Positions 5,889 to 56,706 of a DNA stretch of 64,000 bases are shown piece by piece (the first letter of the stretch is position 1; each line of letters opens with the position of its first letter). The stretch lies in IMG/VR virus record IMGVR_UViG_3300027806_000037, positions 1-64,000 of that record; one strand, given 5' to 3'. The notes under the pieces were generated by a model. That model had not been told where the DNA came from. It saw only the letters and a list, made by a program, of their open reading frames with translations, and searched no databases. Made by a program: the position numbers and the translations under genes. Source of the DNA: a virus (lineage: Duplodnaviria; Heunggongvirae; Uroviricota; Caudoviricetes).

Positions 5889-5937
5889 AAACCTTTTTCT
5901 TTTCTTTTTGTGTGGTGGGAAAATAAAATTTAAAATA
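5889..5937 (+). promoter_or_regulatory. conserved about 50-nt upstream element AACCTTTTTCTTTTCTTTTTGTGTGGTGGGAAAATAAAATTTAAAA (copy 1, upstream of IleRS-like gene)
   Basis: near-identical copy at about 10684..10748 upstream of another gene. Confidence 0.4.
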
Positions 5938-7911
5938 ATGAATAAAGTATTATTACCAAAAGAAGAAATTACACAGAAGTTAGATAGAGATAAACTTACT
6001 TTATTGAACGCTTCTATCAAAGATTATGTGAACAACTTGTATGAAAATTCAAATGATGAATACATTATACAAGATGGTGAACCATACGCCAATGGAGAAT
6101 TACATTTGGGACATTTTTTAAACAAAACCTTGAAAGATTTTGTTGTAAAATATTACTTAACAAAAGGTAAGAAAGTTAGGGTTTCATTTGGTTGGGACTG
6201 TCATGGTTTACCCATTGAAAATAAAGCAAAAGAAATGAGTGGTGATTTAATTCAAAATGCTAAATTAGTCGCAACCAAATATTGTGATATTCAAAATAAA
6301 ACTCTTGAACTTTTCGGGATTTATCCAACTGAAGGTAGGTTTAAAACTATGGATATTGATTTTATAGAAAGAGAATTATATATATACCACCAACTACTAA
6401 ATGCGGGTCTAATTCTTAAAAAGAATAAGCCTACTTGGTACTCACCAACATTAAAAACAGTATTGGCTAACTCAGAAATTGAATATAAAAAAATAGAAGA
6501 TGAATCTTTGTATTTTCTATTCAACTCTGATAGTTTTAAATTACTTGTTTGGACAACAACAGAATGGACTGTAAACGGAAATCAGGCAGTATGTTTAAGT
6601 AATAATATAAAATATGTTAAAACTGTTGACAATATTATTTGTAGTGAAAGTTTTGCTATTGAAAATAATTTAGATTATGATTTGTTTGATGTGAGTAATA
6701 TTAAGTCATATCATAACCACAATGGAGATTTATGTCCAATTATTTATGATGACTACGTTTCAGATGATAAAACAGGTATAGTACATCTTTGCGGTGGACA
6801 CGGTGATGAAGATTATCGAATTTTAATGGATAATAACATAACCCCCAAAAATGTGTGCGATAAAATCGGCTTATTAAAACACATAGAAGATTTTAAAATT
6901 GATGAAAAGTTTGTATATAAACGTGAAATTTACACACACGATTATCCAATTGATTGGCGTGAAGGGAATAAGGTGTATAAAGTATTAACGGAACAAACGT
7001 ATCTTGATTTTGATTTAAACAAAATAAAGACTTGTTTAAAAGAAATAAAGTTATCATCAAAAGACAGAAATCGTTTATCAACGACAATATTTTCACGCAA
7101 AGATTGGTGTATTTCAAGACAAAGAAAATGGGGTGTTAAAATACCTAATAGTAATGATATATTGGATGTTTGGTTTGATAGTGGTTCTACATTTATGATG
7201 TATGATAAACCTGCCGATATATACATTGAAGGTTCAGACCAACACAGAGGGTGGTTTCAAAGTTCGATTATATTAGCATCAATGATTGGTCGAGTACCAA
7301 CAAAAAGAATAATAACACACGGATTTATTGTTGATAACACATTAGAAAAACTATCAAAATCAAAAGGTAATGGCGGAAGTTTGGAAAAGCTGTATGAAAC
7401 ATATAACCCTGATGTATTAAGACTATGGGTTTTACTGTCAGATTTTAAAAACGATATTGTCTTTTCGGAAGATTCATTAAAAAACTCTGGTAAACAATAT
7501 TTTAAAATAAGAAACTTTCTCCGTTATTTATTTAATAATCTATATATATATGATTATGATGAAACAAAAGTTGATGAAAATATTTTTTTTAAAGTAAAAG
7601 AGTTGGAAAATAAATTTGATTTACTTGTCAATGAATTTGATTTGAATAAAGCAGTAAGGGGTTTTGTTGAATTTATAAACTATTATTCATCTTTGTTGAC
7701 GGAGGATATTAAAAATGAATTTTATGAATCTGACACAAATTCCAATATGAGAATTAAATATGAAACAGAGTTTTACTATGTTTTAAAACACTTAAATAAA
7801 CTACTTTTTTCGATTTTACCATTTCTTTCTATGGAAATAAAAAAAGCGTGGGAAGAAAAAAGAAAAGAAAAAGATTTACATGTAGGGACTATATTTGGAA
7901 ACGAGATGTAG
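5938..7911 (+). CDS. ileS: isoleucyl-tRNA synthetase-like class I aaRS, shortened (about 657 aa)
   Basis: PYANGELHLGHFLNKTLKDFVVKYY (HIGH region), GWDCHGLPIE, WTTTEWT, DWCISRQRKWGVKIP and KLSKSKGN (KMSKS) are IleRS signatures. Protein is about 250-400 aa shorter than canonical IleRS: reduced CP1, C-terminal Zn domain missing. Confidence 0.8.
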   Translation: MNKVLLPKEEITQKLDRDKLTLLNASIKDYVNNLYENSNDEYIIQDGEPYANGELHLGHFLNKTLKDFVVKYYLTKGKKVRVSFGWDCHGLPIENKAKEMSGDLIQNAKLVATKYCDIQNKTLELFGIYPTEGRFKTMDIDFIERELYIYHQLLNAGLILKKNKPTWYSPTLKTVLANSEIEYKKIEDESLYFLFNSDSFKLLVWTTTEWTVNGNQAVCLSNNIKYVKTVDNIICSESFAIENNLDYDLFDVSNIKSYHNHNGDLCPIIYDDYVSDDKTGIVHLCGGHGDEDYRILMDNNITPKNVCDKIGLLKHIEDFKIDEKFVYKREIYTHDYPIDWREGNKVYKVLTEQTYLDFDLNKIKTCLKEIKLSSKDRNRLSTTIFSRKDWCISRQRKWGVKIPNSNDILDVWFDSGSTFMMYDKPADIYIEGSDQHRGWFQSSIILASMIGRVPTKRIITHGFIVDNTLEKLSKSKGNGGSLEKLYETYNPDVLRLWVLLSDFKNDIVFSEDSLKNSGKQYFKIRNFLRYLFNNLYIYDYDETKVDENIFFKVKELENKFDLLVNEFDLNKAVRGFVEFINYYSSLLTEDIKNEFYESDTNSNMRIKYETEFYYVLKHLNKLLFSILPFLSMEIKKAWEEKRKEKDLHVGTIFGNEM

Positions 7912-7916
7912 CACTT

Positions 7917-8040
7917 GCTTATAACGGTTGCAAATATAAAACGTTTTAAACTAAACTTAAATTGAAAAACAGTATATAAATATAAACCAACAATAAATTT
8001 GGAACGCTGAAATAAATGTTTTATATTTGTTGTTATAAAC
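7917..8040. repeat. palindromic element (PE family: ATAACGGTTG-arm ... arm-TTGTTATAA)
   Basis: cttataacggttgcaaatataaaacgtttt ... aaatgttttatatttgttgttataa inverted arms. Confidence 0.5.
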
Positions 8041-8058
8041 ACGTTAAATTATTTTATT

Positions 8059-8337
8059 ATGAAAACATATAATGTAAAGTATGATGTTGGACAAGAAGTA
8101 TATATACTTTTATCCAAAAAAATATTTAAAAGTAAAATTGAAAAGATTAGAATTGTTCATGGGGTACCTTATATCAAAGGCGAAACAATGGAACAAATGG
8201 ATGGAATTGAAATTGATTACTTGGTTGTAGTTAATGAACAATTCTATCCTTCAGGTGGACATTTATCTAGTTATGATTGGTATAAACAGGATGATATTTT
8301 TTTGGATAAAGATGAACTGTTGCGGAAAATAATTTAA
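8059..8337 (+). CDS. hypothetical protein (PE-bracketed cassette ORF)
   Basis: 92-aa ORF between PE elements. Confidence 0.45.
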   Translation: MKTYNVKYDVGQEVYILLSKKIFKSKIEKIRIVHGVPYIKGETMEQMDGIEIDYLVVVNEQFYPSGGHLSSYDWYKQDDIFLDKDELLRKII

Positions 8338-8342
8338 TTGTT

Positions 8343-8397
8343 TATAACGTCTGATGATAAACAATCGTTTTAATGTGTTTTATTTGCTGTTATAAGT
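8343..8397. repeat. PE-family palindromic element (GATGATAAACAA...TTGTTTATC hairpin variant)
   Basis: ataacgtctgatgataaacaatcgttttaatgtgttttatttgctgttataag; same hairpin type recurs at about 12979..13040. Confidence 0.45.
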
Positions 8398-8419
8398 ATG
8401 TAATTTACAATTTATACCT

Positions 8420-8665
8420 ATGAAAAAAACGAAAAGAAAAATACATATTGGAAATGACCTATGGTTTTATTGGGTTGGTTCTGGTAGATGGGGTGAGGTA
8501 ACTCATGTAACGATATGTTCACCAGATGAACAATATTATAAAATAGATGCAAGTGATGTTGCAAGTAGTGAAATGTATGTTGGTGCGGAAGGGTCATTTC
8601 CAACACAAATATTACCGTCAAAAGTTAAAGAATATATTGAAAATAAAATAATAAATAAATTTTAA
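8420..8665 (+). CDS. hypothetical protein (cassette ORF)
   Basis: 81-aa ORF. Confidence 0.45.
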   Translation: MKKTKRKIHIGNDLWFYWVGSGRWGEVTHVTICSPDEQYYKIDASDVASSEMYVGAEGSFPTQILPSKVKEYIENKIINKF

Positions 8666-8673
8666 ATTATTAC

Positions 8674-8772
8674 TTATAACGGTTGGGTGTATGAGAAGGT
8701 TTGCTTAGATGAACTTTCAAATTAACCACTGAACTTTATAGCAAACTTTCTTATACACCTTGTTATGTGTAG
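8674..8772. repeat. PE-family palindromic element
   Basis: ttataacggttgggtgtatgagaaggtttgc ... gcaaactttcttatacaccttgttatgtgtagg; about 27-nt inverted arms, about 45-nt loop. Confidence 0.6.
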
Positions 8773-8836
8773 GTGTGGTTAATTAAGGTAGAATGTTAAA
8801 TAGTAGAAATGAACAAAAATTTTAAAAGAAAAATAT

Positions 8837-9723: not shown

Positions 9724-9767
9724 TTGTTCAATTGTGCGGTGGGAAAGTTTTTAAATATTGTCGTTTT

Positions 9768-9852
9768 AGCCGTTGTTATGCGAAGGTGTGGCAACTCCAA
9801 AATTTCAAATTATAGACAAAACTTTCTTGCCACACTTTTGCATAACGGTTGT
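9768..9852. repeat. PE-family palindromic element (inverted orientation)
   Basis: ccgttgttatgcgaaggtgtggcaa ... ttgccacacttttgcataacggttg. Confidence 0.55.
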
Positions 9853-9955
9853 AAATATGAGAAGTAAATTTTACCTATAAAAATTAGATAAATCAAAATT
9901 TATTTCTTATATTTGTTGTTATAAGTATGTAAAACAAACTAAATAATAATTAAAT

Positions 9956-10539: not shown

Positions 10540-10548
10540 AATTTATTA

Positions 10549-10640
10549 CACCTAACGGTTGGGTGTATGAAACGTAGCCACGCACAATACTTAATATAAA
10601 CCACAGACCTTAATTGGCTATGTTTTATACACGATGTTAG
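10549..10640. repeat. PE-family palindromic element
   Basis: cctaacggttgggtgtatgaaacgtagcc ... ggctatgttttatacacgatgttagc. Confidence 0.55.
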
Positions 10641-10683
10641 CAGTAGTACGGATTTAAACTACAAATGCTCATTCGGAGAACTG

Positions 10684-11995: not shown

Positions 11996-12000
11996 TATTA

Positions 12001-12062
12001 CACATAACGGTTCGGCGGGTTGCCGTTGTGCATTCAATAACGGCAACCCGACTGTTATGCGG
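12001..12062. repeat. PE-family palindromic element (compact)
   Basis: cataacggttcggcgggttgccgttgtgcattcaataacggcaacccgactgttatgcg. Confidence 0.55.
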
Positions 12063-12100
12063 GGTCATTCTTTTTCACTCGGTAAAAAGCAAAAGGTACA

Positions 12101-14392: not shown

Positions 14393-14486
14393 CTAGTATA
14401 TATAAGTAAGTATAATCTAACCACTTAAAAATAAAGGACTTGAATAATAAAATTATTAAGATTTGTGAAGAAAAGTTTATATATTT
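14393..14486 (+). repeat. 94-bp perfect direct repeat, copy A (covers promoter region and first 15 codons of the tyrosine recombinase)
   Basis: ctagtatatataagtaagtataatctaaccacttaaaaataaaggacttgaataataaaattattaagatttgtgaagaaaagtttatatattt, identical at 43982..44075. Confidence 0.8.
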
Positions 14487-15240
14487 AAACTATTCACCAA
14501 GAACAAAAGATAATTATCTTTCACATATAAAAAATTTCTTAAATCACATTGGTAGTAAACAAGTAATACATTGTAATGCTCAAGATTTTCAATCCTATTT
14601 AGATAATTATAAATTCACTTCAACAGCACAACAAAACCAAATCATTAACGCAATAAGATTTCTCTACAAATTTGGTCTTAATAAAAAATATGATAAAATA
14701 TCGTTTAAAAGACCTAAATCTGAGAAGAAACTACCAAAAGTAATTGATTCAAATTCAATCATTGATAAATTAAATAAGATTGATAATCTCAAACACAAAG
14801 CAATTCTCACCTTAACTTTTTCAGTTGGTCTACGAGTCTCAGAAATAATTAATCTTAAAATAGAGGATATTGATTCCAAGCGAATGTTAATCCACATTAA
14901 GAACGCAAAAGGAAGAAAAGATAGAGTTGTTCCATTATCTCAAAATGTATTAAGACTATTAAGAACTTATTATAAAAATTATATCCCAAAGGAATATCTC
15001 TTCAATGGACAAAACAGTACTAAATATTCAATAGGTAGTTGTCAGAAAATATACAAAAAATATATTGAATCTGATGGACATATACACACACTTAGACACA
15101 GTTTTGCAACATCCTTATTAGAAAATGGAACAGATTTAAGAATTATTCAAAAAATTCTTGGTCATTCAAATGTTAAAACCACAGAAATATACACACACGT
15201 TTCAAATCAAATTTTGAACAAAATTAATTTGCCAGTTTGA
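14440..15240 (+). CDS. tyrosine site-specific recombinase/integrase (XerC/D-like), apparent TTG start
   Basis: Catalytic set R (LRVSEI), K (HIKNAKGRKDR), HxxR (HTLRHSFAT), H...Y (LGHSNVKTTEIYTHV). No in-frame ATG near the N-terminus; the frame opens after a stop at about 14413. Confidence 0.8.
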   Translation: MNNKIIKICEEKFIYLNYSPRTKDNYLSHIKNFLNHIGSKQVIHCNAQDFQSYLDNYKFTSTAQQNQIINAIRFLYKFGLNKKYDKISFKRPKSEKKLPKVIDSNSIIDKLNKIDNLKHKAILTLTFSVGLRVSEIINLKIEDIDSKRMLIHIKNAKGRKDRVVPLSQNVLRLLRTYYKNYIPKEYLFNGQNSTKYSIGSCQKIYKKYIESDGHIHTLRHSFATSLLENGTDLRIIQKILGHSNVKTTEIYTHVSNQILNKINLPV

Positions 15241-17201: not shown

Positions 17202-18182
17202 ATGAAAGACGCAACGATTGAAATTATTTCTGAAGTCAAAGCTCATCCTGATGCAGATAGACTTGATCTTGTTAAGATTCTTGGGTTTCAATGCGTTACA
17301 CAAAAAGGACTTTATAAGGGTGGTGAGAAAATTGTTTATATTCGACCTGATGCGGTTCTTCCTATTGAACCTTGGACTGAAGAGTATCGAAAATATTCAC
17401 CAAAACGAATCAAAGCTGTAAAACTTCGTGGCGAATTTAGTGAAGGTATTATTGTTAGGTTTGAACAACTTCCAGTTGATTTATCAAATCTTCAAGTTGG
17501 CTCTGATGTGAGTGAACAAATTGGTGTTGTTCATTATGAAGCACCACAACCACAAGATCTTCAAGCAAAAGGTTATCTTCCGGTTGGAATTGGTCCCACT
17601 GATGAAATTCGATTTGAGAATATCATTGATGAACTTCCATTCGGTTCAATTGTTGATGTTACATCTAAAGTTGATGGACAAAGTTGTAGTTTCTATTATA
17701 ACATTGAAACTGATGAATTTGGTGTTCTTGGAAGAAACTTGGAAATGAAGTTGGATGCGGTAAATAACTATACCGCACATGTTGCTCGTTACAACATTAA
17801 AAATAAGCTTATTGACTATTGCAAAAAACATAATGTTTCTTTGTGCATTCGTGGTGAGTCGTTTGGTCAAGGGATTCAAAGTTCTGGAAACAATCCACAT
17901 TCTCAAAAACCAAAAGGGTGGGTAATGTTTTCTGTATATAACATTAAAGAACGTAAATATCATAGAAAGAACGATAGATTCTATTTTAGAAATGTTGCGC
18001 AAGAATTGGAATTACCATTCGTTGATATCATTGAATTGGATGTCGAATTAACTAATGAGTTGATTCAAAAATATTCGGTTGGTATTGATAAAATTGAAGG
18101 TAAACCTTTTGAGGGTGTTGTAATTAATCATGAAAATGGTTCTTTTAAAGTTATTAACAAATCTTATGATTCTAAAAAATGA
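17202..18182 (+). CDS. fusion of tRNA-binding OB domain (Myf/EMAP/CsaA type) and RNA ligase nucleotidyltransferase domain
   Basis: N-terminus EVKAHPDADRLDLVKI ... KGGEKIVYIRPDAVLP ... LRGEFSEGII matches the tRNA-binding domain of MetRS-C/PheT-N/CsaA. C-terminus has ligase motif I KVDGQS, motif III-like IRGESFG, motif IV EGVVI, motif V FKVINK. Confidence 0.6.
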   Translation: MKDATIEIISEVKAHPDADRLDLVKILGFQCVTQKGLYKGGEKIVYIRPDAVLPIEPWTEEYRKYSPKRIKAVKLRGEFSEGIIVRFEQLPVDLSNLQVGSDVSEQIGVVHYEAPQPQDLQAKGYLPVGIGPTDEIRFENIIDELPFGSIVDVTSKVDGQSCSFYYNIETDEFGVLGRNLEMKLDAVNNYTAHVARYNIKNKLIDYCKKHNVSLCIRGESFGQGIQSSGNNPHSQKPKGWVMFSVYNIKERKYHRKNDRFYFRNVAQELELPFVDIIELDVELTNELIQKYSVGIDKIEGKPFEGVVINHENGSFKVINKSYDSKK

Positions 18183-25567: not shown

Positions 25568-25585
25568 ATAATCTCCGTTCCTTCT

Positions 25586-25601
25586 CCCCCCCCCCCCCCC
25601 C
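25586..25601. repeat. poly-C homopolymer tract (about 16 C) in a CT-rich block
   Basis: ctccgttccttctcccccccccccccccttaac. Confidence 0.8.
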
Positions 25602-25621
25602 TTAACAAAAAAAATAATAAA

Positions 25622-25820: not shown

Positions 25821-25839
25821 CCCCCCCCCCTCCCCCCCC
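25821..25839. repeat. poly-C tract (C10-T-C8) in a CT-rich block
   Basis: ttcccgtcttcctttccttccccccccccctcccccccctc. Confidence 0.8.
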
Positions 25840-25878
25840 TCTTATTTAATAAGATTAAAAAAAAATAGAAAATTTATA

Positions 25879-26073: not shown

Positions 26074-26337
26074 TAATAAAAATTAAAAATTCGTTTTTTA
26101 GTCTAATTTTTCTATTAGATACAATAACACATAATACAATACGTTTTATGGTTAATAATAGGTTTGAGTTAAGTTGAAAAATCTCACAAGTTACGAATAT
26201 TTTTTTTAATTTGGAATAGATGAACAATGAATAACATTAAATATTAAATTTCCAAATTAACTTATTAACTTATTAACTTTAACTATTTTTTTTGTGTTGA
26301 ATTTATTTTTTTATTACAATTTCATCTTGACTTCAGT

Positions 26338-26468
26338 AATCCTATTAGCGTCCATAACGCCTAATACAATAGACGCTATACAGCTTAATACAATAGCGTC
26401 CATAACGCCTAATACAATAGACGCTATACAGCTTAATACAATAGCGTCCATAACGTCTAATAGGACCG
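26338..26468. repeat. 48-bp tandem repeat (about 2.5 copies) with internal ATAGCGTC/GACGCTAT inverted repeats, the whole block enclosed by CCTATTAG...CTAATAGG
   Basis: unit gcgtccataacgcctaatacaatagacgctatacagcttaatacaata; lies inside a 650-bp ORF-free region that also has TTAACTTA direct repeats at about 26250..26280. Confidence 0.7.
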
Positions 26469-26737
26469 AATTAATCTCAAAAACCCAGCAAGATACGGAG
26501 AACTTTTTGATTCTGCAATAGCTAAAGAACATATAACAATAAATATAACAAAAGCAAGGATTTTAACATTTTTTTTCTGTTAATAACTTTTTCTTTCAAA
26601 CTATTTGGAAATACGAAGTCTTTTGCGTATACTTCGCGCACACGCACGTTCCTTATTAGTGTGGGGTATGGTCAAAAATTATTTTTCGTTGGCGCTTGTA
26701 TTTTTGAATTTTTGTTGTAGCTTTGCATAAATTAAAA

Positions 26738-26908
26738 ATGACGACCATGAATAAGCAACGAGTGATTGATGCTGACAATATGAGGACATTGGAAGTCTTT
26801 GATAGCAAAGACACCGATACTGTCCTCAGTCGTTATCGAGCGATGGGTAAGTGGGATGACGTTGATGTTGATGGGGATGGTGATATAATTTTGTTTAAGG
26901 ATGAGTAG
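26738..26908 (+). CDS. hypothetical acidic protein
   Basis: ATG after the TTTG promoter box (tgtagctttgcataaattaaaaATG). Confidence 0.45.
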   Translation: MTTMNKQRVIDADNMRTLEVFDSKDTDTVLSRYRAMGKWDDVDVDGDGDIILFKDE

Positions 26909-31869: not shown

Positions 31870-31941
31870 GCCCCCATAGTTAAATGGATATAATAGAAAA
31901 CTTCTAATTTTCGGTTCCTAGTTCGATTCTAGGTGGGGGTA
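31870..31941 (+). tRNA. tRNA-Arg(UCU)
   Basis: Acceptor GCCCCCA/TGGGGGT, anticodon stem GAAAA/TTTTC, loop CTTCTAA (anticodon TCT), T-arm CCTAG-TTCGATT-CTAGG. Confidence 0.7.
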
Positions 31942-32008
31942 CTGAAACTTTTTCATCCTAAATCGAACTTTTGAATTATTCCTTATATTTATAGGGAAAG
32001 ATTCGATA

Positions 32009-45665: not shown

Positions 45666-45682
45666 TAATAATTATTTTTGAT

Positions 45683-45758
45683 TGTTAATAACTTTCACTT
45701 GCATTGAATCAGAAATTGTTGTAGCTTTGCATCATTAAACCAACAAAAACAATCAACC
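45683..45758 (+). repeat. about 75-bp identical repeat, copy 1 (stop-proximal GTTAATAAC motif plus promoter/leader)
   Basis: gattgttaataactttcacttgcattgaatcagaaattgttgtagctttgcatcattaaaccaacaaaaacaat, repeated at about 46728..46800. Confidence 0.7.
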
Positions 45759-46492: not shown

Positions 46493-46728
46493 ATACACTT
46501 AAATCGTTTAATGCCGCGCAAGCATGGAAAACAACACAAGCAGCTTGGTTAGATGAAATTGAAAAAATTCTTAATTTGATCCAAGAAAAAGCAAAAGCAA
46601 AAGAAACAACATTAGTTTTAGAATATAAGATGAATCAAATTTTGAAAAGAATTTTAATAGAAGAATATGGATTTAATGTTTCATATCATTATTTGACTGA
46701 CAAAATACTAACAGAAATTCGTTGGTGA
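46489..46728 (+). CDS. hypothetical protein
   Basis: 79-aa ORF. Confidence 0.45.
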   Translation: MNTLKSFNAAQAWKTTQAAWLDEIEKILNLIQEKAKAKETTLVLEYKMNQILKRILIEEYGFNVSYHYLTDKILTEIRW

Positions 46729-46800
46729 TTGTTAATAACTTTCACTTGCATTGAATCAGAAATTGTTGTAGCTTTGCATCATTAAACCAACAAAAACAAT
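46728..46800 (+). repeat. about 75-bp identical repeat, copy 2
   Basis: see 45683..45758. Confidence 0.7.
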
Positions 46801-51267: not shown

Positions 51268-51530
51268 ACCAATTACCAAAAAAATATCAACAATATTGTT
51301 TAGCAATAACTTATGGGTTATTTGCTGATATGTTGAATCCGAAAAACCAAGGACCGAATTTCACATGGGATAAATTTCCGGTTATAGCTTCTGACTGGGC
51401 TGAAGGTAATATTGGTCTTTATTATGGAAATGTAAGTGAAAGACATAAAAAGATGATTGCTGAGGAATGTAAACTTTTAGCTGAAAGAATATTGAAAAGA
51501 AGTGAAATTAATTTGTGGTTTCAAAAATAA
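51264..51530 (+). CDS. hypothetical protein
   Basis: 88-aa ORF. Confidence 0.45.
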   Translation: MNQLPKKYQQYCLAITYGLFADMLNPKNQGPNFTWDKFPVIASDWAEGNIGLYYGNVSERHKKMIAEECKLLAERILKRSEINLWFQK

Positions 51531-51538
51531 GTAATACT

Positions 51539-51823
51539 ATGAACAAGACCAAAAAACACTATACAGAAGCAGATATTAATAAGTTTCTCCCTAAAGGATG
51601 GAAAGCAAAAGCATTAAATTCTGTTACTTTCAGAATTACAAAGAAAGAACAATTTGCTGGTGATGAAACGCACTCATTTATTTATTCACCATCCACACCT
51701 TGCACCGAAGTCGAGTTAATTCAGGGTTTGGTTTATTGCGCTCATTATGGTGGAACAGAGCATGGAAAAAACAAAGCTGTTGAGAATCTTAAAAATAAAA
51801 TTGCAAAAATGATTTTTGATTAA
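51539..51823 (+). CDS. hypothetical protein
   Basis: ATG (MNKTKKHYTE) inside track ORF 51515..51823. Confidence 0.45.
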   Translation: MNKTKKHYTEADINKFLPKGWKAKALNSVTFRITKKEQFAGDETHSFIYSPSTPCTEVELIQGLVYCAHYGGTEHGKNKAVENLKNKIAKMIFD

Positions 51824-51870
51824 GTTATTTTTCTTACCTTTGCATCATCAAACCAAAACTCCCAATAACC

Positions 51871-52044
51871 ATGATGACAAAAAGGGAAAAGGCGATGAAG
51901 TGGTGGAACGGACTTTCATCTGCACAAAAGACAAAACTCTGTGACACCAATACGGAACTTGTTGGTAAACATCGAAGGTGGGAAACTCTAACTGGTAGGG
52001 AAATCGAAATGCTTATGAATATTGACGATATTGTAAATGATTAA
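51871..52044 (+). CDS. small hypothetical protein (57 aa, not in track)
   Basis: MMTKREKAMKWWNGLSSAQKTKLCD... after conserved promoter. Confidence 0.35.
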   Translation: MMTKREKAMKWWNGLSSAQKTKLCDTNTELVGKHRRWETLTGREIEMLMNIDDIVND

Positions 52045-52208
52045 ATAATGTTCACTTCACTCTCCCCCTCCTTTTCTCATGTTCTCCCCCTTTTCGGGGT
52101 CAAACATTCGGGAGTGGTTCGTTCAGTTAACATTATTTAATCCCCCTTTTCTAATGGGTCATATTAGATGATGACTATATGCTACATTAGCATCAATAAA
52201 GAAAAACA

Positions 52209-52424
52209 ATGATGACAATTAGCAACAATGATATCCCACAAGATAGGGTTAATAGTTGTTGGTCTATCGACCTTTTAACTAACCCATATTACTGGGATAT
52301 AGAATATCATGAAGTCGTGACCCACAATAGAAGGGGAAGAAAGAAGGAACAAATTAGTGGGGTAAAGAATGGGTCATATAAGGGGTCAAAGAATGGGTCA
52401 CTAAGAAACCCTCTCATCCGTTGA
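52209..52424 (+). CDS. hypothetical protein (in G/C-run island)
   Basis: 71-aa ORF. Confidence 0.35.
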   Translation: MMTISNNDIPQDRVNSCWSIDLLTNPYYWDIEYHEVVTHNRRGRKKEQISGVKNGSYKGSKNGSLRNPLIR

Positions 52425-52599
52425 GATGTTCTGTTATAGGGGAAATAAAGGGGGTAGAACAACCTCTAAAGATGTCCCCCGCTAACCAATTAATGAATTA
52501 ATTATTTGCTGGAAATGCTTAATACCCTAAATATGAGGTAGTTAGGATAAATGGGGAATAAAAAACCCTGTTTTCACCATCAAAAAGGGGGTTTTTAAG

Positions 52600-52665
52600 C
52601 AATGTGGGATATAGTGGGGAATTGTGGAAGATAGTGGAATGTGGGGAAAGGGGATTATCCCCTCC
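52600..52665. repeat. iteron-like direct repeats ATAGTGGGGAATTGTGG / ATAGTGGAATGTGGGG
   Basis: gggatatagtggggaattgtggaagatagtggaatgtggggaaagggga in an ORF-free 370-bp stretch. Confidence 0.5.
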
Positions 52666-52797
52666 GTCAATTAATCCCCTCTGTTACAAAAAATTAAAAA
52701 ATCTTTACCACAAATATACGGATAAAATAGTTAAAAATCAAGTTTTTTCTTTCAAATCTTTTGTTTATCTTTGCAACCATTCAAAACATAACCAACA

Positions 52798-53083
52798 AAT
52801 GACTGAAATAGAAATCATCCGAACAGCACCTCCGAAGAAACCCGTTATTCATAAGGTGGGGAATTTCTATCGCAATAGCAATGACCACGGATTGTATCAA
52901 CTAACTGGGGGGATGAATACTAATGAAATATTCCTTATTGAAATCGAGAGTGGAATATTGTGGGAATCTCTTCAAGTGAAAGATATTAAGAATATTACAG
53001 ATGAAGAGTTTGATTTGCTTATTGGTCATGACCCAACGCTATTTGATTATGTGGAAAGGGTTCAAATTAATTATGTGCTTTAA
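52798..53083 (+). CDS. hypothetical protein
   Basis: ATG (MTEIEIIRTAPP) after the promoter; upstream part of track ORF 52604..53083 is the noncoding repeat region. Confidence 0.45.
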
Positions 53084-53139
53084 CTTGCATAATTGATTTC
53101 CCCTCCTTATCTTTGTTACCCACTAATACAAATCAATAA

Positions 53140-53556
53140 ATGATTACACATACAGCACAAGCAACAAACGCAATCAAATGGATTGATGCTCTTAAAGGGG
53201 GGAAGAGAGGATATAAAAAGGGAATATTCTCCCTTGGACAAAAAGTTAACCATAATACTAATGAACCACAATCTTATTGTTGTCTCGGTGTTGGTTGCAA
53301 GGTATTGAATGTGAAGGTTGATGATTGGGGTGTCTCATATGATGAGACCTTTACTAAGTTGGTTGGACTATATAATAACGAGGGTTATCTAAATAATAAA
53401 GTGATTGACTTTAATGACTGTCTTACCGGAATAAACGATTTTGTTTATAGCGGTGATAAAACCTTCACCAATATCAGAAAGTTCATTCTAAAGCATCTTG
53501 ATGATATCTTTATCCCCCCTGTCGCAAGTAAACTTAAACAACATTATGGGAAATGA
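53140..53556 (+). CDS. hypothetical protein
   Basis: 138-aa ORF. Confidence 0.5.
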   Translation: MITHTAQATNAIKWIDALKGGKRGYKKGIFSLGQKVNHNTNEPQSYCCLGVGCKVLNVKVDDWGVSYDETFTKLVGLYNNEGYLNNKVIDFNDCLTGINDFVYSGDKTFTNIRKFILKHLDDIFIPPVASKLKQHYGK

Positions 53557-53915
53557 ATAATCCTTGGTTTGAAAAATCAGATGATGGAACTTCTTGGGTC
53601 TTTACCGTAAGTGGTAAGGATGATGACCCAAACAATTTTCATGCTGAAGAACTTGATATGCTCTTTAAGTTTGGACCTAAATACTTTAGGGAGAACATCA
53701 CAAAAATTGTTCTTGAATATGATGGAGAATGTGAGTTTCATTTTAAGGATGATACACCATCGGTTTCCACAGCGTTCAGGGGGAAAAGTTATATCTTCTT
53801 GGAAGCGGTTGGTCTAATGTGTCTTGGTATGGTTATTAGATTCTCCGAAGCACAAAATAATCACCCACCTGAAGTTGTTAAATGGTTTAATAAGTTTCTT
53901 GATTATAGAAAATAA
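53553..53915 (+). CDS. hypothetical protein
   Basis: 120-aa ORF. Confidence 0.5.
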   Translation: MNNPWFEKSDDGTSWVFTVSGKDDDPNNFHAEELDMLFKFGPKYFRENITKIVLEYDGECEFHFKDDTPSVSTAFRGKSYIFLEAVGLMCLGMVIRFSEAQNNHPPEVVKWFNKFLDYRK

Positions 53916-53962
53916 ATTTGGATATATGAAATGAAATGCTTATCTTTGTAATGTCATGACGA

Positions 53963-54032
53963 GGGGGAGAATGATTCGGGTGAGGTTAAAAGGGTTTCTT
54001 TCTAATTAAACAAGTTGTTACCCCCCGAATCA
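53963..54032. repeat. long hairpin AATGATTCGGG...CCCCGAATCATT (11-12 bp stem, about 40-nt loop)
   Basis: seen directly. Confidence 0.5.
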
Positions 54033-54058
54033 TTTGAACCCATAATAAATAAAATAAC

Positions 54059-54175
54059 ATGGTACTACTTATTCTTCTCGCTGCTCTTACTGTTGGATTC
54101 GCTTCCCTTATGGAAGAGCATGGTATGCTTAAACGAAATGATGATAATGAACCACCACCGATGACAATTTGGTAA
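54059..54175 (+). CDS. small membrane peptide (38 aa, not in track)
   Basis: MVLLILLAALTVGFASLMEEHG... Confidence 0.25.
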   Translation: MVLLILLAALTVGFASLMEEHGMLKRNDDNEPPPMTIW

Positions 54176-54496
54176 AGCAAATATCATCCCCCATCTAATG
54201 TGGGGTCTCTATATGGGGATAATGGGGGTATAACACCCCCCTCCCCCTCCGTATCCCCTCCATATAGGGGGTTTTTTGACGGTTTTGGGGGGGATAATCC
54301 CAAACATAAAATCCTCAGAAAAATTTTTGGGAAATTTTTTGTAAAAATGACCTCCCCCTTTCTTAATCTATTTCTTTATTCTAAAACATGACCCCTTCTT
54401 ATAAGGAAGGGTAAAATCTATTTTAGAATTTTTGGAAAATTTTTTGGAAAAATGAATTTTATCATATATCTTTACAATCCTTAAATCAAAAAAGAA

Positions 54497-55144
54497 ATGA
54501 AAAAAAGAGAATTTACCAAAAGAGAACAAAATCGAATAGCGAAAAGGGAGTGGGAAAAATCCCAAAGAAACGCTATATTAAAAAATATTAATAACCTCTT
54601 AGGTAAGAAAAGAGAATTCTCTCATCCATATGTGGGTACTATAACAATATACAATAATTGTTTAGCATACGAAAATTGTAACTTCTCCAACGGATATAAA
54701 GGAAAATTAATTTTTAAGAAAGAATTTGTTGAATTGCTTGAAACGAAATATGGTAAGGATGCACATCTCCAAATAACAGACATTGGGGGTTCCGTCTCAT
54801 TTTTTGGAATAGGTAATTTGGAATATGACCAATTTGATTTTATTACTAAAAACTTTAATAACAATATTAAATTAATAGAGAATATATGTTTCATCAAAGA
54901 AAATGCTTATACAAATAATTATGGGGAAACAATTAATATGAATAAAACCCAAGATGGGGATGTTTATTTTAAGCATGGGGATTCTCATAATAAAATTATT
55001 AAGTTTGATGATTTGTTAAAGACTAATCCTCTAAAATTAGCAGCTATTCTAAATTTGTGGGAAAAGAAATCTGTATGTGGTTTATTATTCGGAACAAAAT
55101 ATGGTTATCTTATTCGATATATTATGAATCAATCTCCATATTGA
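54497..55144 (+). CDS. hypothetical protein, tandem paralog 1
   Basis: C-terminal half (YGETINMNKTQDGDVYFKHGDSHNKIIKFDDL ... KKSVCGLLFGTKYGYLIRYIMNQSPY) homologous to the next gene. Confidence 0.5.
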   Translation: MKKREFTKREQNRIAKREWEKSQRNAILKNINNLLGKKREFSHPYVGTITIYNNCLAYENCNFSNGYKGKLIFKKEFVELLETKYGKDAHLQITDIGGSVSFFGIGNLEYDQFDFITKNFNNNIKLIENICFIKENAYTNNYGETINMNKTQDGDVYFKHGDSHNKIIKFDDLLKTNPLKLAAILNLWEKKSVCGLLFGTKYGYLIRYIMNQSPY

Positions 55145-55260
55145 CCCTCCCCCATTTAAATAAATGAGGAGGTCATATGTTTAAAAGAATTTTTGGGAAA
55201 AATTTTGAATATTGGATTCTTCTCCCTACCTTTGTACCCAACAAAATAAACCTTATAAAA

Positions 55261-55575
55261 ATGAACTACAACTCGGAAATTAATTTTGCTAATAAAACCA
55301 ATTTTAATATTGTCAGGAAAGATGCTTATGCAAATAAGTATGGGGAAACGATTGACATGATTGAAACCCAAGATGGGGATGTTTATTTTAAGCATGAGGA
55401 TTTTCATAATCAATTTATTAAATTTGATGATTTGGTTAAGGGGGGTGAATTTAGGGATAACATTAAATTGATTATTATTATGAATCTTGAGGAAAAGAAA
55501 TTTGTATGTAATTTCTTAATGGGTACAAAATATGAATATCTTATTCCCCACATTATGAATCAATCTCCATATTGA
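55261..55575 (+). CDS. hypothetical protein, tandem paralog 2
   Basis: YGETIDMIETQDGDVYFKHEDFHNQFIKFDDL ... KKFVCNFLMGTKYEYLIPHIMNQSPY. Confidence 0.5.
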   Translation: MNYNSEINFANKTNFNIVRKDAYANKYGETIDMIETQDGDVYFKHEDFHNQFIKFDDLVKGGEFRDNIKLIIIMNLEEKKFVCNFLMGTKYEYLIPHIMNQSPY

Positions 55576-55678
55576 CCCCCTTAAGATAAATAAGGGTCAA
55601 AATGTGAAAAAGAATTTTTGGGAAATTCAAAACTTTTCCTTACCTTTGTATCAACAAACAATTTAAACAAAATAAACT

Positions 55679-56224
55679 ATGATGAATCTTTTTGAAAAAC
55701 TAACAAACAAACCCGTCACCGAATATGTTATCAGTTATTTGGATAATGTTGCGGATAAGAAAAAAAGGTTTAGAACCCCATCCGCTTTGAGGGAATTTTT
55801 GAAATCCAAAAAGTTTATTCGCGCCAAAACAATGGTTGAAGATAATAATCTATATGTTATCTATACCACATTAAATAAAGAAGGTTTCACGATTAAGTCC
55901 TCCGAATATTTTGATATTTCAAAGTATGAAAAGGAAATTAAGAATCAATTGGAGTTGTTTAATAATAAGTTGAAGTTCCAAATTGCTGAAAGCACCGATG
56001 AATATATTATCTTTAAGCTTCCCCTCAGAGTGGTTAGCACACCAACCATTCAGAATTCCGCTCCCGCTGTTGTTAATGGTAGCAGAACAAATAAGTTAAC
56101 CGAAGAAGATATCTTTAATATGAAATATGAATATCATGTTAAAGGGGTTCCAGCAACAAAGCTTGCAAACATCTTTAAGGTTTCATATTCCAAAGCATTA
56201 AAGGTTGTTGGTAGCGAATATTAA
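55679..56224 (+). CDS. hypothetical protein
   Basis: 181-aa ORF. Confidence 0.5.
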   Translation: MMNLFEKLTNKPVTEYVISYLDNVADKKKRFRTPSALREFLKSKKFIRAKTMVEDNNLYVIYTTLNKEGFTIKSSEYFDISKYEKEIKNQLELFNNKLKFQIAESTDEYIIFKLPLRVVSTPTIQNSAPAVVNGSRTNKLTEEDIFNMKYEYHVKGVPATKLANIFKVSYSKALKVVGSEY

Positions 56225-56233
56225 AATTTTAAC

Positions 56234-56401
56234 ATGGAAAATAAATTGCGCTGGTATTATACCGAATATCCGATGTGGAAATTTGTTGCAGACAATGATG
56301 AAGAAGCATTGAATCGAACAAATGCTAAAGTTGTCTATAGGGAAGATGATACTTCTCCCGATGGGATTCCTTTTGTTATTTTGCGAAATATACAAGATTA
56401 A
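56234..56401 (+). CDS. small hypothetical protein (55 aa, not in track)
   Basis: MENKLRWYYTEYPMWKFVADNDEEAL... Confidence 0.3.
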   Translation: MENKLRWYYTEYPMWKFVADNDEEALNRTNAKVVYREDDTSPDGIPFVILRNIQD

Positions 56402-56706
56402 TCATCAAAATCCGATGTAATGTTATTATCGGGTTCATAGAATAATTTGGTTGATTGAATCTTAGAATATTTTCTTACAACTTTTTCCGTGGGTTTTGGT
56501 TCTTTGTGAAATAATTCTTTTGGAATTTTCCCCAATTTTTGTTTGAAGAATAAATCATCATCCCAATCTTTCATGGAATATTTTTGCTCCAACGCTTCAC
56601 AAGCTTGTTTGCATTCATCTTCTGATGAAAATGTTCCAACAATTATGGTTTGTTCAATAACCCAATTATTATCTTTTTTAACCGGGGTAAATGTGATTCT
56701 TTTCAT
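56398..56706 (-). CDS. hypothetical protein (minus strand)
   Basis: internal ATG (MKRITFTPVKK) of track ORF 56398..56739; convergent with the + gene. Confidence 0.4.
   Translation of the reverse strand: MKRITFTPVKKDNNWVIEQTIIVGTFSSEDECKQACEALEQKYSMKDWDDDLFFKQKLGKIPKELFHKEPKPTEKVVRKYSKIQSTKLFYEPDNNITSDFDD

Follow-up and report, generated by a model that had tools for sequence, protein, structure and literature searches.

The subject of this account is a short region near the right end of a 64,000-nt window, that is, the whole stretch of DNA that was analyzed, taken from the IMG/VR record IMGVR_UViG_3300027806_000037 of an uncultured tailed phage. An island marked by runs of G and C occupies 52039-55678 of this window (3,640 nt, 5.7% of its length), and the island together with g181, the gene that adjoins it on the right, is treated here as one module (52039-56224). 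It holds seven small orphan genes and one conserved helix-turn-helix (HTH)-like gene, g181, and it is probably a hyperplastic mosaic accessory module of a large uncultured phage with sigma-A promoters of the Bacteroidota type. Relatives, numbered below with an L, were metagenomic contigs reached through homologs of g224, g138 and g181. The features of the module are as follows.

52039-52142 (+): H1, a long imperfect hairpin of ~104 nt, starting at the upstream gene's stop codon; left edge of the module
52209-52424 (+): g70, small basic orphan protein of 70 aa, containing the KNGS coding repeat AAGAATGGGTCA
52425-52798 (+): conserved non-coding leader of g94 (374 nt), with a two-copy repeat, a palindrome and the g94 promoter
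52766-52773 (+): -7 box of the g94 promoter, TATCTTTG
52799-53083 (+): g94, orphan, with a TAnnTTTG box 33 nt upstream
53108-53115 (+): -7 box of g138
53108-53556, including the -7 box (+): g138, phage-only family with an invariant YCCLGVxC motif
53553-53915 (+): g120, orphan, window lineage only
53941-53948 (+): -7 box of the promoter of the g38 unit
53969-53980 and 54024-54035 (+): arms of the 5' hairpin that follows the 53941 promoter
54059-54175 (+): g38, single-pass membrane peptide of 38 aa, called as a gene in L005
54186-54293 (+): G/C multi-hairpin element, with run hairpins, a terminator-like hairpin and a G7 tract
54188-54205 and 54224-54241: its C5/G4 and G5/C6 hairpins, respectively
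54253-54277 (+): its terminator-like hairpin, followed by T6
54287-54293 (+): its variable G7 tract
54322-54349 (+): orphan double box with no usable -7 box
54390-54411 (+): small hairpin between the double boxes
54427-54455 and 54468-54475 (+): double box of g215 and its -7-like sequence TATCTTTA
54497-55144 (+): g215, orphan, whose C-terminal half is paralogous to g104
55142-55175 (+): stop-codon hairpin of g215, TGACCCTCC...GGAGGTCA
55188-55200, 55204-55207 and 55227-55234 (+): g104 promoter, as box, -33 TTTG and -7 box TACCTTTG
55261-55575 (+): g104, paralog of the g215 C-terminus (53-56% amino-acid identity)
55573-55599 (+): stop-codon hairpin of g104, TGACCCCCTTA...TAAGGGTCA
55613-55625 and 55641-55648 (+): g181 promoter, as box (its own TTTG being the -33 element) and -7 box TACCTTTG
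55679-56224 (+): g181, at the right edge of the module; alpha/beta fold in the N-domain, three-helix HTH-like domain at the C-terminus

Composition, promoters and hairpins

The island contains 47 of the 129 runs of at least four G or C in the window (binomial P = 1e-25) and 23 of the 41 runs of at least five. Uniform scatter over the window, which an earlier note on this DNA had named as the outcome that would speak against a distinct island, was therefore not seen. Mononucleotide shuffles of the island gave an expectation of 4.8 ± 2.2 runs against the 47 observed, whereas the 82 runs in the rest of the window are near their expectation of 66 ± 8. Expressed per kilobase, there are 23.4 runs in the intergenic DNA of the island, 7.2 in its coding DNA and 1.36 in the rest of the window. 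Two motifs are exclusive to the island within the window, namely AGGGGGA/TCCCCCT (seven copies) and AAAGGGGG/CCCCCTTT (six copies). The k-mer and GC profile that had been suggested as a check gave a different dinucleotide signature, with rho values of 1.87 for GG/CC, 0.53 for CG and 0.56 for GC against 1.21, 0.90 and 0.81 in the rest of the window, and a GC content that is scarcely raised (0.35-0.36 in the island and 0.31-0.33 nearby). The signature extends to codon usage, with GGG accounting for 34% of glycine codons in island genes versus 8% (p = 7e-7) and AAG for 41% of lysine codons versus 20% (p = 4e-5), and with AGG and TCC also preferred. The distinctness of the island lies in the clustering of G and C rather than in GC content, and the island is real and has sharp bounds, in composition as well as in regulation, much as the earlier note had described it. 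Its wording that the runs were absent elsewhere was too strong, although the concentration that it saw is real, and the stretches that it took to be non-coding are so only in part, since the open reading frame (ORF) at 52209-52424 and the 38-aa peptide at 54059-54175 are coding.

A second property of the island is its promoter motif. The box A[AT]TTTTTGG[GA]AAA occurs at 54322, 54427, 54439, 55188 and 55613, always on the plus strand and nowhere else in the window; five copies were thus found where four had been counted. They had also been placed about 30 nt upstream of a promoter, but the TTTG of the box either is itself the -33 element, with 19-21 nt to the -7 box, or belongs to a second copy 11-12 nt further upstream. 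The AATTTTTGG(G/A)AAA boxes are therefore best read as the predicted extended -33 regions of one duplicated promoter family. The copy at 54322 looks like a relic. A mini-ORF at 54346-54390 (MTSPFLNLFLYSKT) directly follows this orphan box and has a counterpart with a similar N-terminus at 6868-6927 of L007 (MTPFLFLYIILPPSYFFIL); given how near it is, the box could not drive its transcription, and it too is probably a relic.

Hairpins built from the runs accompany these promoters. G-run/C-run hairpins adjoin every promoter cassette, and 110 of the 132 run bases in the intergenic DNA of the island (83%) are paired in minimum free energy (MFE) folds. The longest hairpin, H1, folds as RNA at -32.7 kcal/mol (z = -6.1), with none of 200 shuffles equally stable. 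It is 100% identical in L007, where the flanking DNA is ~6% different, and in L018 its architecture and its z of -6.1 are kept through two Watson-Crick double substitutions, one change of A-U to U-G and a paired A-U insertion. Judged from these changes, H1 is a selected structure, whose role could be that of a terminator or insulator, of a processing site of the RNase III type or of a site that acts at the DNA level. In the leader of g94, the palindrome GGGGATTATCCCC (52650-52662) and the promoter block from -90 to -7 are kept in all six of the lineages aligned, and the MFE structure pairs 36 of the 43 run bases, the z of the whole region being +0.55. The 12-bp hairpin that had been noted near 53963 is real. 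Its segment of ~91 nt is absent from L007 and L022, and unrelated hairpins of a G-run followed by a C-run occupy its position in L013 and L019/L020.

In the G/C multi-hairpin element, an alignment of eight lineages had invariant run stems and variable loops, and the core is 81-84% identical over 64 nt in L013/L016/L017, contigs whose shared proteins are 26-56% identical to those of the window. RNAalifold found essentially no covariation (covariation term -0.12), and the fold, with a z of -0.77, is no better than that of shuffles. A coding role for the element was considered and set aside: the window, L007 and L022 have an open ORF at 54200-54391, but in L018, L019 and L020 it is closed by indels of one base within C-runs. 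Mobile hairpins resembling miniature inverted-repeat elements (MITEs) were likewise rejected, since each genome has a single copy of H1, of the 5' hairpin and of the G/C element. In Rfam, the window gave two tRNAs alone at the gathering score, and 51500-56500 gave nothing meaningful at E <= 5.

Two observations on runs and folding concern other parts of the window. Poly-C tracts at 25583-25602 (~C16) and 25823-25842 (C10-T-C8) lie in pyrimidine-rich stretches right after two stop codons; their bases are all unpaired in MFE folds, unlike the runs of the island, and they could be Rho-loading or slippage tracts. The intergenic regions 8666-8836, 9724-9955, 10540-10664 and 11996-12100 form far more stable folds than dinucleotide shuffles (z of -4.4 to -5.2) and could be structured RNAs or strong terminators.

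Mosaic relatives and the phage behind the window

The homologous islands that the earlier note had suggested looking for do exist, as the module recurs in mosaic form in other metagenomic phage contigs. The same elements are found in the same order in L007/L012, L018, L019, L020/L021 and L022/L023, at 66-96% nucleotide identity, and gene content differs between every lineage recovered. Two other small genes stand in place of g138 and g120 in L007, an unrelated minus-strand gene of 146 aa stands in place of g215 in L007 and L022, g120, g215 and g104 are all missing from L022, and L018 has further genes inserted behind H1 and ahead of g138. The module of the relatives has 11.5-14.3 runs/kb and a GG/CC rho of 1.66-1.92, and their alternative island genes have 4.5-8.4 runs/kb; a 133-aa gene of L007 and a 56-aa gene of L018, inserted at or near the left end, have no runs.

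The places where homology stops coincide with the promoter cassettes. Homology blocks shared with L007 end at 53116 and 53951, just after -7 boxes, at 54331, inside a box, and at 55175, just before a box, the last being the point at which homology resumes after the break at 54331. Blocks shared with L022 end at 54455, inside a box, and at 55599, just before one. The 146-aa gene of L007 and L022 is flanked by direct repeats of ~40 nt (TTATCCTTAATATGTGAAAAAnAATTTTTGGGAAAAATTT). In L022, from which g104 has been deleted, a hybrid promoter joins the upstream half of the g104 promoter to the g181 leader within CCTTACCTTTGTA, and the loss of g104 can be attributed, from this junction, to a crossover between the g104 and g181 promoters.

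The proteins of the island are all orphans or belong to phage-only families without known function; against Pfam, PHROG and PADLOC they matched no family of known function, Rep and Par included, and the alternative cassette genes of the relatives had no usable match in Pfam. They are likely to be early or host-interaction genes. g70, for which the Pfam and PHROG scans gave no family, has eight of its 13 substitutions relative to L007 at third codon positions, and its protein is 64-69% identical in L018 and L019. g94 is 89-93% identical at the amino-acid level in L007 and L022 and is adjoined by a weak paralog in L007. g138 has 28 homologs of 35-61% identity and an AlphaFold model of high confidence (pLDDT 90), with no PDB match in a fold search and BFVD matches only to unnamed or uncharacterised viral proteins. 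g120 is absent from L007, L013 and L018-L022 but weakly resembles the C-terminal end of a 200-aa L013 protein, and g38 is kept as MxxLILxxxLxVxFxSxMEEHGM in L007, L018 and L022.

Among 5.8 billion proteins, g215 found only itself and its paralog g104, which is 97% identical in L007. The duplicated segments of the two genes are 88% (54900-55021/55319-55440) and 82% (55045-55147/55476-55578) identical, and both genes end in ...IMNQSPY-TGA with the stop codon inside a hairpin of the TGACCC...GGGTCA type, which bears out the tandem paralogs with a shared stop-codon hairpin that had been reported earlier. The last gene, g181 (AlphaFold pLDDT 83), has a local HTH match of its C-terminus to the KorA-operator complex 5clv_M (probability 0.99, rmsd 1.4 Å over 37 columns) and further local matches to ArdK and a resolvase HTH, with weak Foldseek E-values of 0.4-0.65 for the HTH matches. 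Its homologs in the more distant relatives L025-L027 (53% identity) have another genome position, no TTTTGG box and a normal run density; in L025 and L026 the homolog is at 8001-8534, ~7 kb downstream of an FKBP/PG-binding gene block. As these homologs lie elsewhere, without box or run excess, g181 probably belongs to the native genes of the phage, with the module lying against it, and not to the imported pool.

A further set of contigs, L013/L014/L015 and L016/L017, represents a distant phage group with a GC content of 37-41% and shared proteins of 26-56% identity. This group is run-rich throughout, with 5-11 runs/kb across the 10.7-kb L013 contig, an abundance of runs in the shorter L014-L017 as well, and a GG/CC rho of 1.4-1.7 (1.4-1.5 in L013/L016/L017). 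Its g138 homolog is followed by the promoter seen in the window, GAATGAATTGCTTATCTTTG, then by a 5' hairpin of G-run and C-run unlike that of the window, by the shared G/C element and by a TTTTTGG box in double form. If the module or its parts move between phages, one would expect just this: non-coding DNA that has changed less than the protein beside it, in a genome whose whole 10.7 kb bears the signature of the island. The comparison thus suggests horizontal exchange of the module or parts of it between phage lineages, and it suggests the window phage as the recipient, a direction of transfer that we infer from the same evidence. The earlier view of a separately acquired or separately regulated module fits well with its own dinucleotide signature, codon usage and promoter family, with its mosaic recurrence and with the occurrence of g138 and the G/C element in the distant group.

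The window as a whole has a GC content of ~30% and small, densely packed plus-strand genes. The following features were also located.

5908-7911: class I aminoacyl-tRNA synthetase
17202-18182: RNA ligase
14440-15240: tyrosine integrase
31870-31942: tRNA-Arg(tct)
35720-35794: tRNA-Met

Such a set of translation and RNA-repair genes is typical of very large phages. The larger proteins of the window have distant matches, solely to uncultured huge-phage records. No T4 core genes or markers were found in the 64 kb, and its other large proteins were unassigned; a PF26092 T4_Y16D match on one small gene neighbouring the island is the sole T4-type signal. The modules for structure and replication are located beyond the limits of the window. 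A TAnnTTTG -7 box lies 11-70 nt upstream of 40 of the 132 genes (11.7 ± 3.2 in random windows), and this is the sigma-A -7 consensus in flavobacteria (PMC9723704). The leaders, inspected by eye, are A-rich with no Shine-Dalgarno sequence seen, and leaders of this kind are reported for Bacteroidetes (PMC6847099). From these promoters and leaders, we infer that the host belongs to the Bacteroidota. Other promoter cassettes occur outside the island: AGTTATTAACA(A/T)T(C/T)GT lies ~45 nt upstream of several -7 boxes (28495, 33947, 34814, 40174 and 42239), and two near-identical cassettes of 60-70 nt, at 45681-45743 and 46723-46790, are present in L007 too. They suggest a cassette-based architecture throughout the whole early region.

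Six contigs from different samples (JGI, ENA and Logan) are 99.96-100% identical across the region, and the agreement of these independent assemblies excludes an assembly artefact. No match came from a megablast search of 50,697 phage records with the stretch at 51-57 kb, from scans of IMG/VR with g215, g138 and the DNA pattern of the G/C element, or from a search for that pattern in GTDB genomes. A g138 profile search of GTDB genomes found only matches of 27-33% identity in unrelated metagenome-assembled genomes, which are uninformative on the host.

Weighing the explanations

The explanation favored here starts from what is observed at the locus, namely the run enrichment, the compositional signature, the promoter motif, the synteny with mosaicism and the breakpoints in cassettes. 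The module would be a string of small transcription units, each with a -33/-7 promoter, often with paired -33 boxes 11-12 bp apart that belong to one promoter family, one small orphan gene and a short hairpin with a stem of G-run and C-run. These hairpins would probably terminate or attenuate transcription and, at the 5' or 3' side, form structures that stabilize the RNA, and it is this role that would make the G/C runs densest between genes. Since the cassettes of 30-45 nt recur between genes, they would be sites of homologous recombination, which may have duplicated g215/g104, deleted genes and swapped in unrelated ones, lineage by lineage. The genes themselves would come from a pool that is GG/CC-rich, CG/GC-poor and partial to GGG, AGG and AAG, unlike the rest of the window phage. 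Given this signature and the similar 10.7-kb contig of the distant group, the module was most likely imported and is still being exchanged horizontally.

Several points weigh against this explanation. Only two of the lineages recovered have intact flanks, and in each of them the island occupies the same site, so the synteny that the earlier note had set against a separate module is half borne out, the module at that site being nevertheless mosaic rather than identical. No relative with an empty site was among the contigs recovered, L025 and L026 ending just short of the equivalent position, and the case for acquisition therefore stands on composition and on the shared g138 module. Whole intergenic regions fold no better than dinucleotide-preserving shuffles (z of -1.9 to +0.55), which means that folding energy is no proof of selection on the short hairpins; their suggested structural role draws instead on the pattern of conservation and on an analogy with the promoter-early stem-loop (PeSL) cassettes described below. 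The stop-codon hairpins have no T-tails and so are not canonical intrinsic terminators, and the G/C element and H1 are conserved beyond what a plain terminator would need. The bias toward GGG, AGG and AAG in coding sequence is not explained by hairpins and could have a cause other than foreign origin, for example selection on expression. Promoter and terminator activity and early timing are readings of the sequence.

The extra conservation of H1 and the G/C element leads to a tentative alternative, by which the locus is one of non-coding RNA, with H1 and the promoter-to-terminator unit at 53941-54277 acting as functional structured RNAs (a small RNA (sRNA), a processing site or a protein sponge). 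The RNAs would then be the real cargo and the G/C runs would exist to build them, an idea that is compatible with a mosaic module. The stability of H1, its identity in L007 and its compensatory changes and paired insertion in L018 all agree with this, as does a G/C element that stays 81-84% identical between groups with far less similar proteins, lies between a conserved promoter and a terminator-like hairpin, forms in L017 a unit of only ~140 nt with no ORF of more than five codons, and has C-run indels of 1-2 bases that disrupt every frame across lineages. On the other hand, no Rfam family was matched even at E <= 5, the G/C element has neither covariation nor unusual folding energy, the transcript of four lineages also carries a conserved membrane peptide of 34-38 aa and would thus be at least partly mRNA, and recent horizontal transfer or a DNA-binding site could account for the conservation just as well. 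There is a small chance, then, that H1 and the G/C unit are previously undescribed phage structured RNAs that travel with the cassettes as the selected cargo holding the module together; H1 might in that case be a processing or insulator element, and the G/C unit an sRNA or a dual-function RNA that also encodes the 38-aa membrane peptide. A dedicated regulon is doubtful. In such a regulon, the AATTTTTGG(G/A)AAA boxes would be operators for a phage regulator, most plausibly g181, which has a box in its own promoter, and the module would be a separately timed unit. The boxes are exclusive to the module within the window, the double boxes 11-12 bp apart are kept in relatives and in the distant L013 group, and the three-helix domain of g181 is confidently modelled with a local HTH match. 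However, the TTTG of the box is exactly at the -33 position, 19-21 nt from the -7 box, and needs no extra factor, the Foldseek E-values are weak, the g181 homologs of L025-L027 have no box nearby, and L013 has boxes with no g181 homolog seen in its 10.7 kb.

Two further ideas about the island are very improbable. A replication origin or partition site with iterons would have the 374-nt conserved non-coding leader, its two-copy direct repeat and its conserved palindrome in its favor. The iteron-like repeats do exist, at 52609-52649, but they are two imperfect copies on which Tandem Repeats Finder was silent even at score 30, and the second copy is absent from L019 and L020. Nor does a replication or partition function of its own agree with the lack of any Rep-, ParA- or ParB-like protein in the island (Pfam, PHROG and PADLOC) or with a cumulative GC skew that climbs monotonically across 50-58 kb with no inflection. 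A better array lies elsewhere, with a 24-nt unit repeated 4.9 times at 26346-26462; it is also read as a 48-nt unit repeated 2.4 times at 98% identity, in a gene-free, AT-rich stretch of ~670 nt (26074-26740), and it makes a far stronger candidate for iterons or an origin than any part of the island. The runs might instead form non-B DNA, as a G-quadruplex or i-motif, or the G7/G8 tract might be a slipped-strand phase switch for the downstream genes, and the chance of this is equally slight. The tract is G7 in the window and L002 and G8 in L001 and L003-L006, the sole difference among these near-identical assemblies besides one SNP in L005, and the site is G6 in L019/L020 and GACCCCC in L007, L018, L013 and L017. 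Against a switch, no ORF contains the tract, which precedes the g215 promoter by ~150 nt, and homopolymer lengths are error-prone in assemblies. As for the G-quadruplex formation that had been put forward for testing, a scan of the island found no motif with loops of 1-7 nt and a single candidate (loops of 1-12 nt) inside the g70 coding repeat, and the G-runs stand mostly beside complementary C-runs, which favors hairpins.

Known systems

The mosaic module favored above has its closest known counterpart in the PeSL cassettes of T4-type phages, which cluster in hyperplastic regions, ahead of ORFans, and bring about indels and replacements (Arbiol et al. 2010, PMC2839356; Comeau et al. 2014, PMC4122927). 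PeSLs are repeated intergenic cassettes with a vegetative promoter of the host type and an AT-rich upstream part, a description matched in the island by its five exclusive boxes. The PeSL stem-loop is often a polyG followed by a polyC, which the G-run/C-run hairpins of the island resemble, with terminator activity that is predicted only and with folds that, H1 apart, are no better than those of dinucleotide shuffles, and the cassettes of both stand upstream of ORFans in the most variable regions. In both, the junctions of indels, replacements and duplications fall in the cassettes (53116, 53951, 54331, 54455, 55175 and 55599 in the island). The differences are that the promoters of the island are of the Bacteroidota -33 TTTG/-7 TAnnTTTG form rather than sigma-70 -35/-10, that most of its stem-loops lie at a stop codon or at a greater distance upstream, and not between or on top of the promoter hexamers, that the phage has no T4 core markers in the window, and that the G/C-run bias reaches into coding sequence. 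Promoter and terminator activity and mini-circles have been demonstrated experimentally for PeSLs, while the island is known from its sequence.

The morons of lambdoid and other tailed phages, described by Hendrix and colleagues, are promoter-gene-terminator units of atypical composition; the classical ones are single units, expressed from the prophage and often of benefit to the host. At the sequence level the island resembles them in its autonomous units between genes, its composition unlike that of its neighbours and the presence or absence of its units in relatives, but it strings seven or eight units together in tandem, and the sole integrase of the window is ~37 kb away. Like iteron-type origins and partition sites of phages and plasmids, the island has non-coding DNA with short direct repeats and a palindrome, and it differs from them in having two imperfect copies, no initiator or partition protein and no change of skew. 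A compositional island in a phage genome need not be a replication or partition module.

The layout of the island is thus of a known and fairly ordinary kind, a hyperplastic region in which cassettes of promoter and G/C stem-loop would drive the shuffling of genes. Its residual novelty lies in the unexplained codon bias and in two unusually conserved non-coding elements, flagged here as candidate RNAs. Clustered G/C runs with TTTTTGG boxes would offer a sequence marker for hypervariable accessory regions in such phages. The principle of the PeSL would extend beyond T4-type coliphages and vibriophages to a Bacteroidota promoter grammar, in which the cassettes appear as recombination handles.

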